From: Escherichia phage PHB12
DNA: 64,000 nt
Sequence record: MK524178.1
Direction: 5' to 3' (one strand)
Made by a program: the position numbers and the translations under genes
Notes under the pieces: model-generated
The model's database searches: none
Seen by the model: only the letters and a program-made list of their open reading frames with translations
Told to the model about the DNA's origin: nothing
In this document: positions 46,697-59,082 of the stretch, in pieces
Position numbering within the stretch: position 1 is the first letter of the stretch
Layout of the letters: each line of letters begins with the position of its first letter

Positions 46697-47356
46697 TTAA
46701 CCTCGATTCATAAATGCATTAAATATTTGGTCATCAACAGAAATTTCTAATTCGACTTCAATTGTTTCAGCCTTTTCTTCAGGTGGTAATTCGTATCCAC
46801 ACACTACAATTTTTTCATCGATATCAAAATATACAGAAGCAATACGATTAATGTTATTTTCGGTTAAGTCTAAATCAACATCAACGTCTTTTTGACCTAC
46901 ACTTAAAGGATAACTAATACGGGTTATTTTATTATCTTTAACAAAGAGTCCACCGACATACTCTGTACTACGTTTGAAGTTTACACGTTTCCGAAATGAA
47001 AGATATGATGCATCTTTACCGTGAGCTCGGCTCATAGGACATAATGAATAGCTAGAATAAGAGATGTCAAATCCTACACCTTCAATATGAGCCAACGCGT
47101 CATGATTAAACCAATTATAATCATATGCCAAATCCATTATATTGTAATATGTGAAAGGCACCGGATTAACATCGTACGTTGTACCTTTAAAATCTGCCCA
47201 GGCAACGATTTCGTTATCTTTAACAATTACAAAAATTACACCAATATGGTATCCGTTATTATTTTCATTCGGCGTTATATTATAACATTGTGCATTAGGA
47301 AATTTACCATATTTAAACGGCGCATTTTTGTGCATATAATAAATCATATTATTCAC
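46697..47356 (-). CDS. Hypothetical protein (61.2 position)
   Basis: 219 aa ORF. Confidence 0.45.
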   Translation of the reverse strand: MNNMIYYMHKNAPFKYGKFPNAQCYNITPNENNNGYHIGVIFVIVKDNEIVAWADFKGTTYDVNPVPFTYYNIMDLAYDYNWFNHDALAHIEGVGFDISYSSYSLCPMSRAHGKDASYLSFRKRVNFKRSTEYVGGLFVKDNKITRISYPLSVGQKDVDVDLDLTENNINRIASVYFDIDEKIVVCGYELPPEEKAETIEVELEISVDDQIFNAFMNRG

Positions 47357-47642
47357 CTGTGATTTCGGTTACGATATCTTTGTTATCGAAATTAGGGTCA
47401 CAATACAAAACATAATTGTACTGCATGATACCACCAGACTTAAGTTGTTCAACAACTTTATTAACCATATTAGGACGGTCTCGTTTAGTGATGTTCATGA
47501 TATCAGAGAAGATTTGTTGTTCAACATCTTCTTGATTTGCAGTCATTGACCACTCACAGAGGTCTTTATCATAACCTGCCGTAACTGGAGCTGGTGCACA
47601 TGATACTGCAAGTAAGATTGCTGCCAATGATAACTTTTTCAT
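47349..47642 (-). CDS. sp: Spackle periplasmic protein (superinfection exclusion / lysozyme inhibitor)
   Basis: 97 aa; signal peptide then AGYDKDLCEWSMTANQEDVEQQIFSDIMNITKRDRP...LKSGGIMQYNYVLYCD, matching T4 Sp. Confidence 0.85.
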   Translation of the reverse strand: MKKLSLAAILLAVSCAPAPVTAGYDKDLCEWSMTANQEDVEQQIFSDIMNITKRDRPNMVNKVVEQLKSGGIMQYNYVLYCDPNFDNKDIVTEITGE

Positions 47643-47705
47643 TTTAACTCCTTAGTTGATTTGATAGGACTACTATACTATAGTCCATCTATAATGTAAA
47701 CAAGT

Positions 47706-47954
47706 TTATTCTTTTTCGCGAATAATAATTACTTGTTGAGGCTGCTGAGCAGATTTCTTTTCGGCAACGATAGACCAAATTAAAGTTCCAATCCAACCAA
47801 TCATCGTCCAGTTAAAGAGTAAAGATACAAAGAAGATTGCTGTTGTGCTTTTTGTGCCACGAATAAGTGCGATTACCCAAGGCAACATGTAAATGATGAT
47901 TGAACCAATACCTGCGATTAAAACTGCTACTGAACTAGCTACGAATAATTCCAT
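47706..47954 (-). CDS. Small inner-membrane protein (2 predicted TM helices)
   Basis: 82 aa; two long hydrophobic segments; T4 61.4 position. Confidence 0.5.
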   Translation of the reverse strand: MELFVASSVAVLIAGIGSIIIYMLPWVIALIRGTKSTTAIFFVSLLFNWTMIGWIGTLIWSIVAEKKSAQQPQQVIIIREKE

Positions 47955-48015
47955 GTTAATTTCCTCTTGATTTGTTATGTTTATAATATCTTGTTTTAAC
48001 TTTGGTGTAAACCAA

Positions 48016-48384
48016 TTAATTAAATTTGTTTAAACGTTCAATACACTGGACGTAGTTATTCGCAATTTGTTTCTGGGTAGGCTCTTTACCAGTTGTTTCA
48101 ACATGGCGAATGAATGCGATTTCAGTAGCCTGTAGACAATGTTCTTTAACGCGTTGTTCTTTTGACAATGCTACAGTATCAGAATCACGATAACGTTGAG
48201 CATGAGCATCAGCTTGAATCATTCGATTGCCTACAGTAACCGGGTCTTCCACTTCAACTTTAGGTTGGTCGTACTGTTTAACATTCGGATTGTAAATCAG
48301 TTGGCCAACGTTATTAGGGATAAAGCCATGGGCACCACATCCAGTTAATCCAAATATCATTGTTAAAGCGATTAATTTTTTCAT
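48016..48384 (-). CDS. Putative lipoprotein
   Basis: 122 aa; signal peptide with lipobox LTGC (MKKLIALTMIFGLTGCGAHG). Confidence 0.55.
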   Translation of the reverse strand: MKKLIALTMIFGLTGCGAHGFIPNNVGQLIYNPNVKQYDQPKVEVEDPVTVGNRMIQADAHAQRYRDSDTVALSKEQRVKEHCLQATEIAFIRHVETTGKEPTQKQIANNYVQCIERLNKFN

Positions 48385-48412
48385 TTTAATTTCCTCTGTA
48401 GTTGATAAAAAG

Positions 48413-48442
48413 ATAGTAACACAGTATGTGGTGCTTGTAAAC
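48413..48442 (-). promoter_or_regulatory. Early promoter
   Basis: Minus-strand GTTTAC, 18 bp, TACTAT upstream of lipoprotein gene. Confidence 0.55.
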
Positions 48443-48454
48443 AGTTATTTAAAA

Positions 48455-48643
48455 TTATCGAAAATCTGCTTCGAAAACTTTCTCGTCATTAACAAATGCT
48501 TTAACTAATGCGTTGTTCACTTCAGCAAGTTGTACCGCAACCCACTCGATTTCTTCGCGATCACCTGATAACATGATATCTTTAGTGAACATCTCACCGC
48601 TTTTAAACCAACCAATAAAAGTAACTTTAGTTAATTTGCTCAT
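48455..48643 (-). CDS. Small protein, possibly Dmd-like
   Basis: 62 aa from ATG 48643 (MSKLTKVTFIGWFKSGEMFTKDI...); ATGA coupled to upstream ORF; size and region fit T4 dmd, identity from memory only. Confidence 0.35.
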   Translation of the reverse strand: MSKLTKVTFIGWFKSGEMFTKDIMLSGDREEIEWVAVQLAEVNNALVKAFVNDEKVFEADFR

Positions 48644-48957
48644 ATTTCCTCGCAAAATGCCCATTCAGCGTGATAAACTGTGGCGCCTTTAGTATTATTC
48701 ATTTGAACTACGTCTACCGGAGAAATTACTCGATAGAGACGTGGTTCACCTCCATAAGAGCGTGCTGCTCGTCCTGCATAAATCTTTGCTAAACCGATAT
48801 CTTCAGTAAAGAATACACGATCCAAGTTTTTCTTACGTCCAGTTTCAGACAGAACTCCTGTTTCCTCAGGAGGACAAAGCATGTTTTCGATGTTAGCTGA
48901 ACTACTTGAACCGTGATAAAAAATCTTAAATTCTGCTTTACAATCGATGGTTTTCAT
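48640..48957 (-). CDS. Hypothetical protein with HGS motif
   Basis: 105 aa; FYHGSSSS...AKIYAGRAA...YHAE. Confidence 0.45.
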   Translation of the reverse strand: MKTIDCKAEFKIFYHGSSSSANIENMLCPPEETGVLSETGRKKNLDRVFFTEDIGLAKIYAGRAARSYGGEPRLYRVISPVDVVQMNNTKGATVYHAEWAFCEEI

Positions 48958-49012: not shown

Positions 49013-49387
49013 TTAAAAATGTAATTTAGATATATCTGCGTTGATTTCGTTTTGGTTTGCGTCATATGCAATTAAACGAACCGCTTTAGATGGGTCATTC
49101 AATGCATAGAAATGATGGAACATTGCTCGAACGATATCACCATTTACGAGTTTTACCTGGATAGGAGAACCTTTTTCGAGTTGGAAATGTTCATAAGCTT
49201 TGATGGTTCGCAGATAATCAAGTTTTTGATTTCCGGCTCCAACAATTTGTACGATACGTTTGCCCATGTTTTCCATACGAGATACAATAGTTTTAGGAGC
49301 AAGAATAACATAGGTTGCCAGCGGAGAATCTACTTCAACAGTTGTGTTTTCGGTGATTGCAGTAAAAATTGCTTGAGACATATTCAT
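49013..49387 (-). CDS. Hypothetical protein
   Basis: 124 aa ORF with SD AGAGGAAAA; between gene 41 and the 61.x cluster. Confidence 0.45.
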   Translation of the reverse strand: MNMSQAIFTAITENTTVEVDSPLATYVILAPKTIVSRMENMGKRIVQIVGAGNQKLDYLRTIKAYEHFQLEKGSPIQVKLVNGDIVRAMFHHFYALNDPSKAVRLIAYDANQNEINADISKLHF

Positions 49388-54978: not shown

Positions 54979-56139
54979 TCATTCCGGGTACCTCAAAGCG
55001 TCATCAGAGTTAGTTATATCAATAATAGATATAGAGTTTTCTGCTAACCCATTTTTAGATAACTGACGTTTATAATATCTTTCACAATATGTACACGTCG
55101 TCCCGCAGATTTCATTAGCACAATCGAAATCTGGATGTCTGAACCACCTTTTTTCTAAAAAGCCATCTAACAAAGAGGTTTCAATATTTACTGTATGTGA
55201 AAACTCGGTTTCGTTTTCAAGAGTGAAAATAGTCTCTAAAGGCTTCCACAATTCCAACAAATTACCTTCAAATTTTTCAGAAGCATAAGCTTCAAGAACT
55301 TTCAAAATGTAGTCTGTGCTACCTGTACGTCCTGAAACTTTGAATTGAGTGATACCAATATCATTATAAAGTTTCAAATCTTGAGGACGAACAAAACGAG
55401 TTCTCAACCAGTTAAATGGGTCTGTATCACGAGCTTTAATACAGTGTTGCATTGGATATCCATTTAAGGATTTGGCATCATCTACTGTAACGTCGGTGCT
55501 ATGGAAAATATAGCAAGAGTCACGATAGCTACAATGTGTTGTATACCCTTTACCAGCATTAGAACAGAACTCATTTACAAGAACTTCAAATATTATATTG
55601 TTCTTATTACAAAACTCTGCTGCGCGTTTCAGGAAAGAAACTGAACGGTTCTTATGAATTCCACAGCAGACCTTTTTGATATTATATTGGTCATGCAAAT
55701 ATTTGATTTGAGTTACAGCATCAACATGTAGAATTGTTGAAACTTCAATCTCAATGTCTTTATTGACTTCACGAACAATTTCCATAACAACAGGGTTAGC
55801 GATAGTAATACGCCATACGCCTATTGACCAAAGATACTGAACATAATCCTGAATAGCTTTCTTCTTCCACTCAACTAGTTCTCTTTTTGAACCAGGATTT
55901 ATCGTGTTGAGTGTATAGTTAAAGCAAATACCTAATTCGTTACAACGTTTAACATAATCTTCTAACATCTTTTTGTCAACGTCAGGAAGCCTAAAATCAG
56001 GTCTGGCTGCTACAAAAGCCATTTCTCTTGTAGAGCCGTATACTTCGTTTATCAAGCTATTAGGATAAGTTTTATTGAGCTCTACGATTTTATCAAGAAG
56101 AGCTAAATCAAAATTCGTTCCGATTTTAAAGGTATTCAT
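54979..56139 (-). CDS. Peptidase-U32-family-like protein with Cys clusters
   Basis: 386 aa; FEVLVNEFCSNAGKGYTTHCSY resembles the U32 signature (E-[IV]-F-V-x-G-A-L-C...G-x-C); C-terminal CANEICGTTCTYC; assignment from motif recollection only. Confidence 0.45.
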   Translation of the reverse strand: MNTFKIGTNFDLALLDKIVELNKTYPNSLINEVYGSTREMAFVAARPDFRLPDVDKKMLEDYVKRCNELGICFNYTLNTINPGSKRELVEWKKKAIQDYVQYLWSIGVWRITIANPVVMEIVREVNKDIEIEVSTILHVDAVTQIKYLHDQYNIKKVCCGIHKNRSVSFLKRAAEFCNKNNIIFEVLVNEFCSNAGKGYTTHCSYRDSCYIFHSTDVTVDDAKSLNGYPMQHCIKARDTDPFNWLRTRFVRPQDLKLYNDIGITQFKVSGRTGSTDYILKVLEAYASEKFEGNLLELWKPLETIFTLENETEFSHTVNIETSLLDGFLEKRWFRHPDFDCANEICGTTCTYCERYYKRQLSKNGLAENSISIIDITNSDDALRYPE

Positions 56140-56193
56140 TTTTGCATCTCGCGTTAATTGTTGCGATGGTTTTTGCAGGTCTTACTTAAATTA

Positions 56194-56580
56194 TTATAGA
56201 TTCGGTTTATATGATTTAAATGTTTCGAATTCGCCTTTATTCATAAGAGCTTTGAATTCGTCAGGACGCATAGCTTTGTCGTCGATAATCCAATCATATA
56301 CTGGTTTATGTGTTAGCAAATTATGGTACTTCAATCCAATGTTTGCCAAGTTCTGAATCAGACTTGGGAGAATGTCAATTGCTATACGACCAGGACCGAC
56401 TGACTTCATACCGCGAGCAGTGTAAAGAGTTATTGTATGCCCTGCATCATACAGGGCATTAATGGCAGACACCATTTCGACGTCTGGTTTGAAGTTCACG
56501 TAATCACGATTGTTATTCCACTCTGTTATACAATCATCGACATCAAAACAAAGATTAAGCATGTTTTCTACACGGTGCAT
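56194..56580 (-). CDS. Small HAD-like phosphatase (candidate sugar-phosphate phosphatase)
   Basis: About 128 aa from ATG 56580 (TAATG coupling); HAD-like motif I FDVDDCIT, motif II ITLYTARG, motif IV WIIDDK. Confidence 0.5.
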   Translation of the reverse strand: MHRVENMLNLCFDVDDCITEWNNNRDYVNFKPDVEMVSAINALYDAGHTITLYTARGMKSVGPGRIAIDILPSLIQNLANIGLKYHNLLTHKPVYDWIIDDKAMRPDEFKALMNKGEFETFKSYKPNL

Positions 56581-58265
56581 TAGATTCGTTCCCATTGATG
56601 AGTGATATCGCCACCGATTGGACGATAGGAAACACCAGTTTCTTTATCAGTTAGTACCCATTTACCAGGATTTTTTGTAATCAGAGTAGCCGTTACAGGT
56701 TCTGCTACGTCATAACTAATAGAGCCGTCTTGAAGTACACGGCCCATGTTACGTAATTGCTTAGTCAGAAGTTCCATACCTTTATAATATGCGGCTACCG
56801 CTTTAAGTGGATTATTCTTGAAATAACCACCTAATGCAATCCAGATAATTGCTACAGCCAAATGATGATATTCATTAAACGAACTCATCTTTCCATATTT
56901 GTAAACTAATGGATTGATGTTAATAGTCACATTACAAGTTGTTTCATCAATAGTAAACTGTCCCCAGGTCGGATTAGCGTTGAATTCATCATAACCTGAA
57001 ACAGCATAAAGCACTTTAGCTTCATCGTACAATTTTGGCCCATAAATCTTGGTTTCGCCAAAATATCCACGAGGGTCGATAAACTTAACTTCGCCGTTAT
57101 CAGTAATCATAGTATTACTGAAGTTCGGGTCACCATGAATAACAGAGTACTGTCCCTGAGAACGATTATGATAACGAATAAGGTGTTCTAAAGCTTGTTT
57201 CAGCATTGGCTTCAGACGTCCAATCTTAGTGTAGTTCACATGTGTGATTTTACCAAATGAATCAATCAATGGTTGAATGCTTTCACAACGATCAATAACT
57301 TTCGTATAGAATTCTTTAGTGAAATCACGACGAACAGTTTCAGGACTTACAAAATAAGTGTCTGTGCTGAATTTCAGTGCATCTAAAATTGCATCAACAA
57401 TTTGTGGACGAGCAAGACTCGATTTGGATTTAATATATTCAAATGCCGGCTTACCTTTAATGCGTTCCATTTCAAAGTTATTTTCATTAACAGAAACTAA
57501 CTGAGGAACTGAATCTGATTTCACTTTAAGATACCATGAAATCTCATCTTTCTGAAGAGCTCGGCCCTGTTCGGTTAATGCGAATTTAGTTACAGTTTCT
57601 TCACCAATTTCAACTGCATTAAAACTACGATTAAGTTCACGAACTTCATGAGCTTTTTCAAGTTTAGGCATATCACCTAAATCAATTAGATTCATAAGCT
57701 CTGATTTATTGAATGCGCTGCCGTAAAGGAATTCTACGAAATCACGTCCTTTGCAGTATTCATGAATTTCCTCATCAGTAGAACCCATATAGAATTCCCA
57801 GTCTTTGAACTGATAAATTCCTACAACATTACCACCTGTTGAACCTACGTTAGTGATATTTTCACCGTCGAAATTATATCGACATTCGTCACCCTTAACA
57901 TAGATTGCGTTAACATTCCAAGACCATGAGCCAAAATCAGGAATAATATCACACCAGTTAACAATTACATTATGGCCGTCTAAATCTTTGTGTAATTTAG
58001 CAAGAGCATAAGCAGAACCATACGCTTCATCAACTGTACGAATAGTCACATTGAACCCTTCTTGCTCACAATAAGCTCGAACAGTTTCAGCAAATTTTGA
58101 ATGAACTACTACAATAATTTCATCTGCGCCAAGGTCAGAATAAATTGTATACAAATTGCTCAGAATAGTGTCTTGTTTATAGTTAACAAGCACCTTAGGA
58201 ATATGATGCGTTATTGGATACAAACGAGTTGCCAGTCCAGCACCAAGAATAACAGCTTTTTTCAT
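56580..58265 (-). CDS. Bifunctional sugar-1-phosphate nucleotidyltransferase / APH-ChoK-like sugar kinase
   Basis: 561 aa; N-terminal KAVILGAGLATRLYPIT (NTP-transferase G-x-G-T-R), C-terminal VIHGDPNFSNTMI...KFIDPRG (Brenner H-G-D-x4-N and D-x-E kinase motifs). Confidence 0.75.
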   Translation of the reverse strand: MKKAVILGAGLATRLYPITHHIPKVLVNYKQDTILSNLYTIYSDLGADEIIVVVHSKFAETVRAYCEQEGFNVTIRTVDEAYGSAYALAKLHKDLDGHNVIVNWCDIIPDFGSWSWNVNAIYVKGDECRYNFDGENITNVGSTGGNVVGIYQFKDWEFYMGSTDEEIHEYCKGRDFVEFLYGSAFNKSELMNLIDLGDMPKLEKAHEVRELNRSFNAVEIGEETVTKFALTEQGRALQKDEISWYLKVKSDSVPQLVSVNENNFEMERIKGKPAFEYIKSKSSLARPQIVDAILDALKFSTDTYFVSPETVRRDFTKEFYTKVIDRCESIQPLIDSFGKITHVNYTKIGRLKPMLKQALEHLIRYHNRSQGQYSVIHGDPNFSNTMITDNGEVKFIDPRGYFGETKIYGPKLYDEAKVLYAVSGYDEFNANPTWGQFTIDETTCNVTININPLVYKYGKMSSFNEYHHLAVAIIWIALGGYFKNNPLKAVAAYYKGMELLTKQLRNMGRVLQDGSISYDVAEPVTATLITKNPGKWVLTDKETGVSYRPIGGDITHQWERI

Positions 58266-58306
58266 GTTGTGGTCCTCATTGGTAAGTAGGAGTATTGTAC
58301 ACTATT

Positions 58307-58450
58307 CTAGTTAAAGCATTCATACTTTGCTTGTAGTCCAATCATAATCCATCCGATTATAAGAGTCGGAATCATTACTGGAGCCGTTAAGCTCCAGTAG
58401 ATAGTCATGACAAGCATCAATAGTAAAAGTCCTATTGTTATTGCTTTCAT
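58307..58450 (-). CDS. Putative small membrane protein (47 aa)
   Basis: Manual translation MKAITIGLLLLMLVMTIYWSLTAPVMIPTLIIGWIMIGLQ...; ATGA coupled to SIS gene stop. Confidence 0.3.
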   Translation of the reverse strand: MKAITIGLLLLMLVMTIYWSLTAPVMIPTLIIGWIMIGLQAKYECFN

Positions 58451-59082
58451 TGTTCGCCTCGTAACATGGCACCTAGTGCACCGCCAGGGTGGAACTTAAG
58501 GAAGTCATTAGAGGTAAATCCACGTTCAGACGAAAGGTTGATAGCAAACGTATCGATAAGCGCTAACAACAATGTAGTGGACATGGTCGGAGCCAGAGAA
58601 TTCTCATCGACCTCTACTGCGATGCCTGTACAGAACGTATAATCAAAAAGAGCTTCGTATTCTTGTGGAATGTCTGGGTTACAATGCAACAGAATCTGTT
58701 TGACGTTCGGACGAATCATTTTAAGATGCTTAGCCACGCCTATCATTTCTTCAGTTTTACCGGAACGACTAATATGAATCAACACATCATTAGGCGCAAT
58801 GAATCCTGCATCACCGTGAGAATAATGCCCAGTGTTCAAGTACATACTCGGGATACCGAGTGAAGCAAATGTCTCAGAAGCTTTAGTTGCAATATTAGCA
58901 TTCTTACCAACACCTGTAATAATTACTCGGCTTTCATAATTACTAAGTCCAGGGCGTCGAAGAGTTTCTAGAATAGCATTATAACGAGCAGGGTTTTGAC
59001 TAATTACTTTGGCCATAGCGGCCAAAGAAGAAGCTTGTTTTATGATTGCGTCAATAGCGATAGTAATAGGAGTAGTTTTCAT
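58447..59082 (-). CDS. SIS-domain sugar-phosphate isomerase (KdsD/GutQ-like; candidate arabinose-5-phosphate isomerase)
   Basis: 211 aa; ITGVGKNANIATKASETFASLGIPS and C-terminal HPGGALG are SIS-domain hallmarks. Confidence 0.75.
   Translation of the reverse strand: MKTTPITIAIDAIIKQASSLAAMAKVISQNPARYNAILETLRRPGLSNYESRVIITGVGKNANIATKASETFASLGIPSMYLNTGHYSHGDAGFIAPNDVLIHISRSGKTEEMIGVAKHLKMIRPNVKQILLHCNPDIPQEYEALFDYTFCTGIAVEVDENSLAPTMSTTLLLALIDTFAINLSSERGFTSNDFLKFHPGGALGAMLRGEQ

Follow-up and report, generated by a model that had tools for sequence, protein, structure and literature searches.

A probable sp-imm-imm.1 early-gene block of RB69 type in Escherichia phage PHB12, and its predicted lipoprotein Imm.1

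Three consecutive genes on the minus strand of Escherichia phage PHB12 (sequence record MK524178.1; the whole stretch analysed, 64,000 nucleotides, is referred to below as the window) are likely to form a block of early genes, sp - imm - imm.1, belonging to a T-even phage of RB69-like type (Mosigvirus), an assessment that takes in the mechanism proposed below. As a gene cluster, this block is ordinary and already known, since the GenBank record of RB69 annotates sp, imm and imm.1 in the same order. What is of interest is Imm.1, a conserved predicted envelope lipoprotein found together with imm in each of the six T-even lineages sampled; the conservation of its lipobox and its linkage to imm across these lineages are what the present analysis adds. 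The mechanism of Imm, binding of the tape-measure protein, has only just been reported, and reviews still posit a membrane partner for full exclusion.

The three open reading frames lie at 47349-47642 (97 aa), 47706-47954 (82 aa) and 48016-48384 (122 aa). A preliminary description of this DNA had placed a cluster of envelope-targeted proteins at 47349-48384, and this proved correct, these limits being exactly those of the three reading frames together. The first is sp (gene 61.3), encoding Spackle, the second imm, encoding the superinfection immunity protein, and the third imm.1, encoding a predicted lipoprotein of the DUF5481 family; for sp and imm, the RB69 annotation agrees. The 5' boundary of the cluster is formed by dmd (48455-48664, minus strand; PF17587, 2.7e-19; phrog_2102), the antitoxin against RnlA/LsoA, and the downstream neighbour of the cluster on the same strand is gene 61.2 (46697-47356; PF23813, 1.4e-120), that is AdfA, anti-DarT factor A, which begins 8 nt before sp ends. 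The neighbourhood is thus a mixed one, with counter-defence genes flanking the cluster on both sides. Spacers measure 61 bp between imm.1 and imm and 63 bp between imm and sp. In RB69 (NC_004928) the corresponding genes are RB69p035 (sp), RB69p036 (imm) and RB69p037 (imm.1), with the same order and orientation; DNA identity to RB69 is about 98% over 3.5 kb and amino-acid changes are few, but RB69 gene 61.4 (about 206 bp, between imm.1 and dmd) is missing from the window. The cluster genes are near-identical in more than 150 sequenced phages, and between the Imm.1 of the window and the common variant (P0001) identity is about 97%. Scans of the region for Rfam families and for repeats gave nothing notable.

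Each of the three genes is preceded on the coding strand by its own promoter-like site of the form GTTTACA-N17-TAnnnT. These sites, all on the minus strand, are found upstream of imm.1 (48413-48441; TTTACA-17-TACTAT with a TG, the full -35 being GTTTACA), in the spacer between imm.1 and imm (47983-48011; GTTTACA-17-TATTAT) and upstream of sp (47672-47700; GTTTACA-17-TATAGT). A strong ribosome-binding site of the Shine-Dalgarno type, GAGGAA or AAGGAG, also stands before each gene. Soon after infection, sp, imm and imm.1 would probably each be transcribed from their own sigma-70-type early promoter, and their products would be destined for three different layers of the envelope.

The preliminary description had named the 97-aa reading frame Spackle, and the profile searches agree: it matches PF25676 over its full length (residues 1-96 of 96; 1.1e-42, 145 bits against a curated cut-off of 27), phrog_1586 (2.9e-42) and the PDB entry 6x6o, 'Protein spackle' (1.4e-39), and is 66% identical to T4 Sp, for which the structures 6x6o and 7cn6 exist. 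Its signal peptide comprises residues 1-22 (..VTA|GYDKD), leaving a mature protein of 75 aa with Cys29 and Cys81. In the alignment with T4 Sp the motifs ..VTA|GYDKDLC and ..LYCD are conserved, so that both the cleavage context and the disulfide cysteines are kept. Cleavage after residue 22 was established for T4 Sp by N-terminal sequencing (PMC7650644), and this led us to reject the idea that Sp itself is a lipoprotein, which a lipobox-like context around Cys15 might suggest. T4 Sp binds and inhibits the gp5 lysozyme domain in a 1:1 complex (PMC7677548, PMC7650644). By analogy with T4, and given 66% identity, the Sp of this phage would be exported, lose its 22-residue signal peptide and, once periplasmic, bind and inhibit the gp5 lysozyme domain on the tail tip of a later phage.

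The 82-aa protein, described earlier as having two transmembrane helices and left unnamed, is T4-type Imm (PF14373, 1.5e-15, 57.2 bits with a curated cut-off of 27.9; phrog_1039, 'immunity to superinfection', 1e-30). Two long hydrophobic stretches, at residues ~1-34 and ~38-64 (Kyte-Doolittle windows >1.6), are consistent with the two helices, and from its sequence Imm is predicted to be a small, nearly all-hydrophobic inner-membrane protein. With this identification, both classical T4 exclusion genes are adjacent here, and the superinfection-exclusion module proposed in the preliminary description rests on firmer ground than had been claimed for it. In T4, Imm is reported to bind the tape-measure protein and so to stop DNA entry; a TMP-Imm complex was described, and the substitutions R33A and W50A weaken exclusion (bioRxiv 10.64898/2026.03.06.709160). 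The Imm of the window is 65% identical to T4 Imm, and its R32 and W49 align with R33 and W50. On this analogy, Imm would enter the inner membrane and bind the tape-measure protein gp29 of the incoming phage at its helical-bundle domain, with the consequence that no DNA channel would form and the DNA would be stuck in the periplasm. The same study found that plasmid-borne Imm alone excludes T4 (bioRxiv 10.64898/2026.03.06.709160); Imm.1 is therefore not obligatory, and basal Imm activity does not require it. According to a review, Imm alone gives incomplete immunity, and another membrane protein is needed (PMC9952470).

Imm.1 belongs to DUF5481 (PF17578; 34.7 bits, curated cut-off 27) and to phrog_1754 (4.8e-28). 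The preliminary description recognised no T4 counterpart for this protein, which was wrong: T4 Imm.1 (ORF 42.2) is a homolog, with 31 to 32% identity over 95 to 100% of the length (tblastn; E = 4e-10 in the phage collection and 1e-14 in the window alone). Each of the two matches PF17578 and phrog_1754, and the lipobox of the T4 protein is LAGC. Neither Imm nor Imm.1 had a useful match in PADLOC, NCBIfam or PDB sequence searches, and a literature search on DUF5481 and imm.1 found no experimental study of Imm.1. Names such as 'iduronate sulfatase' or 'immunity protein', given to homologs in GenBank, have no supporting evidence.

The lipoprotein signal with the lipobox LTGC that had been noticed in the 122-aa protein withstands scrutiny. 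The signal peptide, MKKLIALTMIFGLTGC (48337-48384, minus strand; codon of Cys16 at 48337-48339), consists of an n-region MKK, an uncharged h-region LIALTMIFG and a strict lipobox ending in Cys16, with Gly at +2. The call is pattern-based (strict lipobox [LVI][ASTVI][GAS]C, together with a PROSITE-like pattern), and in the strict test Imm.1 is the sole protein to pass among the 244 reading frames of 50 aa or more that the 64-kb window contains, which goes beyond chance. The lipobox cysteine is moreover kept in 24 of 26 members of the family, none of which has Asp at +2, and all but one of the 26 have an even number of other cysteines. In E. coli, the Lol rule holds that a lipoprotein whose +2 residue is other than Asp goes to the outer membrane; as this residue is Gly in Imm.1, the inner leaflet of the outer membrane is the predicted location. 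We infer from these features that Imm.1 would be made as a lipoprotein, lipidated at Cys16 and sent to that leaflet, from which a small helical domain, probably disulfide-bonded, would reach into the periplasm on a flexible tether of about 30 residues. Two homologs (P0002 and P0017) have lost the lipid-anchor cysteine and look like soluble periplasmic proteins; tethering to the outer membrane is therefore not essential.

The predicted layout is one of some 30 disordered residues and then a C-terminal domain of three helices, in which Cys83 and Cys114 lie. AlphaFold2 places the helices at residues 48-68, 75-98 and 104-120, the last two with a pLDDT of about 90, in a model of low overall confidence (pLDDT 64, pTM 0.40, from a 17-sequence alignment) whose N-terminal half is poorly modelled. 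An earlier model built on three sequences had a pLDDT of 61, and the passage to 17 sequences improved only the C-terminal helices. A Foldseek search with this model (pTM 0.40) against PDB and BFVD returned nothing significant outside the Imm.1 family, so that the fold gives no indication of a mechanism. Remote homology between Imm.1 and Sp, both small, helical and periplasmic with cysteine pairs, was considered and rejected, the profile-profile alignment extending over the signal peptides only. A spanin pair, made of an o-spanin lipoprotein and an i-spanin, was likewise rejected: it needs a partner with an N-terminal transmembrane segment and a long periplasmic coiled-coil, and the neighbour of Imm.1 is Imm, 82 aa long, mostly hydrophobic to about residue 64 and with no predicted periplasmic domain.

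The linkage of imm.1 to imm was followed across phages with an HMM scan. In 27 of 28 sources, imm has a reading frame of the Imm.1 family next to it on the same strand. These sources cover Tequatrovirus, Mosigvirus, Moonvirus, a Klebsiella T4-like phage, Dhakavirus and Gaprivervirus, and the spacer between the two genes is often only 7 to 14 bp. The order is reversed, imm then imm.1, in Dhakavirus and Gaprivervirus, where the scan revealed just downstream of imm an Imm.1-like lipoprotein of 166 to 167 aa that annotation and tblastn had not seen. In most lineages the pair is located between genes 43 and 42, its usual site; here it lies between dmd and sp. The pair has thus moved beside sp in Mosigvirus, with the result that the exclusion genes are all in one block. 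One distant member of the family (P0024, on a 4.6-kb contig) has an SIS/NTP-transferase cassette after it in place of imm. Three Imm-like genes in three non-T-even phages have no neighbour of the Imm.1 family. Imm.1 diverges faster than its companions (31 to 32% identity between T4 and this phage, against 65 to 66% for Imm and Sp), which could reflect an arms race or mere weak constraint. An exhaustive HMM search of 1.84 billion representative proteins yielded eight matches, mostly phage-type relatives or fragments; one of them, a 2133-aa protein matched in multiple stretches, is probably spurious.

How does Imm.1 contribute? The reading that we tentatively prefer, plausible though short of probable, casts Imm.1 as accessory to the exclusion barrier of Imm and Sp; it would either act on the tail tip as it comes in or lend support to Imm. 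We count in favour of this reading that the linkage to imm survives both an order swap and a relocation, that the three Imm-like genes outside the T-even group have no such neighbour, and that the review cited above wants a membrane partner for Imm (PMC9952470); against it, that plasmid-borne Imm excludes T4 by itself, that P0024 is not followed by imm, that Imm.1 diverges fast, that two homologs are anchor-less and that the model is of low confidence. Adjacency under shared vertical descent, which was also counted on the negative side, is weaker evidence than it appears. Alternatively, Imm.1 may have an envelope role unrelated to exclusion by Imm and Sp, such as modulating some component of the host's outer membrane or periplasm or counteracting a host defence that is based in the envelope, and stand beside imm only as a co-inherited small early gene. 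We regard this as possible but somewhat doubtful. Plasmid-borne Imm works without Imm.1, one Imm.1-like gene has no adjacent imm, divergence is fast, and with counter-defence neighbours as mixed as dmd and AdfA the neighbourhood alone cannot fix the function, all of which would suit an unrelated role. However, the pair has been kept through at least two independent rearrangements (the swap in Dhakavirus and Gaprivervirus and the relocation in Mosigvirus), and this retention, together with the short spacers, often of 7 to 14 bp, would hardly be expected unless co-expression or co-inheritance were selected for. Within the accessory reading, a more specific proposal is that Imm.1 is the long-postulated 'other membrane protein' that gives Imm its full strength, engaging the tail tip or positioning Imm while tethered to the outer membrane; we consider this rather unlikely as it stands. 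If true, T-even exclusion would be a three-layer device, with Imm.1 at the outer membrane and periplasm, Sp in the periplasm and Imm in the inner membrane, and Mosigvirus would have gathered this three-protein device into one gene block.

Two further explanations carry much less weight. Imm.1 could be a lipoprotein of the Cor/Llp type, blocking the phage's receptor in the outer membrane from the periplasm, with the effect that phages arriving later could neither adsorb nor trigger. The general description fits T5 Llp and phi80 Cor, as Imm.1 is a small phage lipoprotein, predicted for the outer membrane, with conserved cysteines. However, the Imm.1 of the window has no match to Cor (phrog_1119) at the 0.01 limit, in two relatives the match to Cor (E 0.02 to 0.06) is confined to residues 1-20, the signal peptide, and two homologs have no anchor; nor did Foldseek, against PDB and BFVD and with a model of pTM only 0.40, find a match beyond the Imm.1 family. 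Moreover, it is established for T-even phages that secondary phages continue to adsorb to infected cells, and that lysis inhibition requires this (PMC6832632), which speaks against a receptor block. A kinship with Cor and Llp, with which the preliminary description had proposed a comparison, thus finds no support here, and we think a function of this type improbable. It is more improbable still, to the point that we give it hardly any credence, that the 122-aa reading frame is a decaying or functionless remnant with a fortuitous lipobox. The lack of an assigned function and the low confidence of the N-terminal half of the model would suit a remnant. However, the frame is intact in 656 phage records and in lineages of six genera, the family as a whole keeps the signal peptide, the lipobox and the paired cysteines, and the gene has its own promoter-like site and ribosome-binding site.

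Compared with known systems, Imm.1 resembles Cor of phi80 and N15 and Llp of T5 in being a small phage lipoprotein predicted for the outer membrane. Cor and Llp are expressed to protect the infected or lysogenic cell. Unlike them, Imm.1 is predicted to be helical, and sequence similarity is confined to the signal peptide. T4 has sp in the 61-41 interval and, about 4 kb away, imm between genes 43 and 42; in the window, 63 bp separate the two. The Imm.1 of the window lacks some 15 residues found after the lipid cysteine in most relatives (consensus G-x-V-V-x-x-S-x-V-G-K) and has two additional cysteines, as against four; it shares with T4 Imm.1 (ORF 42.2) the lipobox, the tether, the helical C-terminal part and conserved cysteines, and in both phages imm.1 lies immediately upstream of imm.

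The window comes from an RB69-type T-even phage: the 3.5 kb surrounding the cluster share 98.0 to 98.7% identity with RB69 and some 150 relatives, and RB69 is placed in Mosigvirus. The three minus-strand ORFs of the preliminary description lie exactly at the limits it gave: sp (47349-47642, 97 aa), imm (47706-47954, 82 aa) and imm.1 (48016-48384, 122 aa). They are flanked upstream by dmd (48455-48664, minus strand) and downstream by gene 61.2, encoding AdfA, anti-DarT factor A (46697-47356, minus strand; PF23813, 1.4e-120). In the GenBank entry for RB69, sp, imm and imm.1 are already annotated in the same order: the cluster is a real, ordinary and previously annotated feature, with the RB69-type layout in which an imm.1-imm pair stands beside sp.

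Several details of the surroundings were recorded. The start of AdfA and the end of sp overlap by 8 nt; AdfA and dmd together make the interval between genes 61 and 41 a series of counter-defence and exclusion genes. Gene 61.4, found between imm.1 and dmd in RB69, is missing from the window, where 48385-48454 is just a 70-bp spacer bearing the promoter-like site of imm.1; forms with and without this gene are both present among close relatives, as one-piece or two-piece matches show. Counted from its first ATG, dmd has 69 aa, while Pfam and PHROG matches begin at residues 8-11 and the RB69 gene is annotated with a length of 192 bp, or about 63 codons; translation probably begins at an internal ATG, codon 8. 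Two conserved early minus-strand ORFs, placed between dmd and gene 41, belong to families of unassigned function: phrog_2110 (48640-48957, 105 aa), which has no Pfam match, and phrog_10668 (49013-49387, 124 aa), which has no significant one (HSBP1 is sub-threshold, E = 0.095).

The identification of the 97-aa product as Spackle (Sp) holds: it matches PF25676 over the entire profile (1.1e-42) as well as phrog_1586, shares 66% identity with its T4 counterpart, for which PDB structures exist, and keeps both cysteines and the cleavage context ahead of GYDKD. In T4, Sp is shortened by 22 residues on export and inhibits the lysozyme domain of gp5 by binding it in a 1:1 complex (PMC7677548, PMC7650644). 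Within the Sp signal peptide, the first 15 residues (47598-47642) place Cys15 in a lipobox-like setting, LAVSC here and LASC in T4, and hhalign pairs this signal peptide with the Imm.1 lipoprotein signal. Since N-terminal sequencing of T4 Sp showed that signal peptidase I cuts after residue 22 (PMC7650644), this motif is apparently unused.

The protein described as having two membrane helices is Imm, with 57 bits against PF14373 (cut-off 27.9), 1e-30 against phrog_1039, 'immunity to superinfection', and 65% identity to T4 Imm. The proposed exclusion module is right for sp and imm, two of its three genes. In T4, the target of Imm is the helical-bundle domain of gp29, the tape-measure protein, and exclusion is weakened by the Imm changes R33A and W50A (bioRxiv 10.64898/2026.03.06.709160); both residues are retained in the window, as R32 and W49. 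In T4 (locus L002, 2226-2510), the longest imm ORF begins 22 nt within the 3' end of imm.1, an earlier start that appears to account for the 94-residue Imm of the preprint's cryo-EM work (bioRxiv 10.64898/2026.03.06.709160). In the window 61 bp separate imm.1 from imm, so that such an N-terminal extension is impossible.

The 122-aa protein is Imm.1 (PF17578, DUF5481, 34.7 bits for a cut-off of 27; phrog_1754, 4.8e-28). The preliminary description saw no T4 counterpart for it, but T4 ORF 42.2 (Imm.1) is a homolog, 31-32% identical across nearly the full length, and its N-terminus, MKIAILVIALGLAGC, contains a lipobox too. The lipoprotein signal itself is supported by explicit rules on the n-region, the h-region and a strict lipobox: of the window's 244 ORFs with 50 aa or more, imm.1 alone passes, with an n-region MKK, a nine-residue uncharged h-region, and the lipobox LTGC ending at Cys16. 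Across 26 family members, drawn both from phage genomes and from metagenomes, the lipobox is retained in 24, the number of additional cysteines is even in 25, and residue +2 is G, V, A or Q, never Asp. In E. coli, lipoproteins without Asp at +2 are transferred to the outer membrane by the Lol system. By this rule Imm.1 is predicted to reach the outer membrane, and its paired cysteines would fit an oxidised periplasmic domain. Two metagenomic relatives (P0002 and P0017) carry a standard signal peptide that ends in AHA and have no anchor cysteine; in this family the periplasmic location seems constant and the anchor dispensable. An AlphaFold2 model from 17 sequences, of low confidence overall (pLDDT 64, pTM 0.40), is disordered to about residue 45 and then shows three helices: 48-68 and, both with a pLDDT of about 90, 75-98 and 104-120. 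GenBank names homologs 'immunity protein', 'Phage immunity', 'putative membrane protein' or 'iduronate sulfatase'; supporting evidence was found for none of these names. PADLOC, NCBIfam and PDB sequence searches with Imm.1 and Imm gave nothing useful.

By tblastn, homologs occur in 897 (Sp), 1040 (Imm) and 656 (Imm.1) phage records. Profile searches extended the Imm.1 family to Citrobacter phage Merlin, a Moonvirus (phrog_1754, 2.5e-48), and to a Klebsiella T4-like phage (phrog_18344, and phrog_1754 at 2.3e-15), and an HMM built in this analysis to lipoproteins of 166-167 aa in the Gaprivervirus P896 and the Dhakavirus AnYang. An Imm.1-family ORF adjoins imm on the same strand in 27 of 28 scanned sources, a descriptive rather than statistical count, as most loci were retrieved via Imm.1 itself and many are close kin. 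In Tequatrovirus, Mosigvirus, Moonvirus, the Klebsiella phage and four metagenomic lineages, imm.1 precedes imm across a spacer of 7-61 bp. The order is imm, a 47-aa ORF and imm.1 in P896, and imm, a 141-bp gap and imm.1 in AnYang. The pair usually sits between the genes for DNA polymerase (43) and dCMP hydroxymethylase (42), and in RB69-type phages between dmd (or 61.4) and sp. The 43-42 interval of the window (54979-59082, minus strand) instead holds a cassette of SIS, NTP-transferase (561 aa), 133-aa and peptidase-U32 genes, which may be the RB69 arabinosyl-hydroxymethylcytosine genes. The informative point is that imm and imm.1 remained paired through both an order swap and a relocation. 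The only uncoupled case seen is a 4.6-kb metagenomic contig (L014) without imm, where a distant 175-aa Imm.1-like lipoprotein (318-845) lies between gene 43 and a SIS/NTP-transferase cassette 70-90% identical to that of the window. Outside the T-even group, neither an Imm.1-like ORF nor one with a lipobox lies within 1.5 kb of the Imm-like genes of a Chaseviridae phage, Klebsiella phage KP591P1 and a Vibrio phage.

All three genes are preceded, 6-8 nt ahead of the ATG, by a strong Shine-Dalgarno sequence, either GAGGAA or AAGGAG, and, another 30-60 nt upstream, by a promoter-like GTTTACA-N17-TAnnnT, identified by consensus match. The GTTTACA-type -35 element is typical of T4 early promoters. 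A small hairpin, GGACTA-N8-TAGTCC (47667-47686), overlaps the -10 element of the site before sp and may be a regulatory element or what is left of a terminator for imm.

What, then, might Imm.1 do? The preferred reading, at somewhat under even chances, is that it is an accessory of the Imm/Sp exclusion barrier. The conserved linkage to imm, the predicted envelope location and the early-type promoter-like site argue for such a role, as does the claim, recurrent in reviews, that Imm does not suffice by itself but depends on a further membrane protein (PMC9952470). Against it, plasmid-borne Imm suffices to exclude T4 (bioRxiv 10.64898/2026.03.06.709160), one family member is not linked to imm, two lack the anchor, and between T4 and this phage Imm.1 has diverged about twice as much as Sp and Imm. 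Our literature search found no experimental work on Imm.1, and the preprint on the mechanism of Imm does not mention it (bioRxiv 10.64898/2026.03.06.709160).

Comparisons with other known systems were rejected. For an Sp-like helical inhibitor, the hhalign alignment is confined to the signal peptides; for a spanin pair, Imm has no predicted periplasmic domain. The preliminary description had proposed a comparison with T4 imm and sp, borne out by the identities of those two proteins, and another with the Cor/Llp-type exclusion lipoproteins of other phages, which is not supported: Imm.1 relatives match these over the signal peptide only, and the low-confidence Imm.1 model gave no fold matches. 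A receptor blocker of this type is further disfavoured by the fact that T-even-infected cells keep adsorbing phage, as lysis inhibition requires (PMC6832632).
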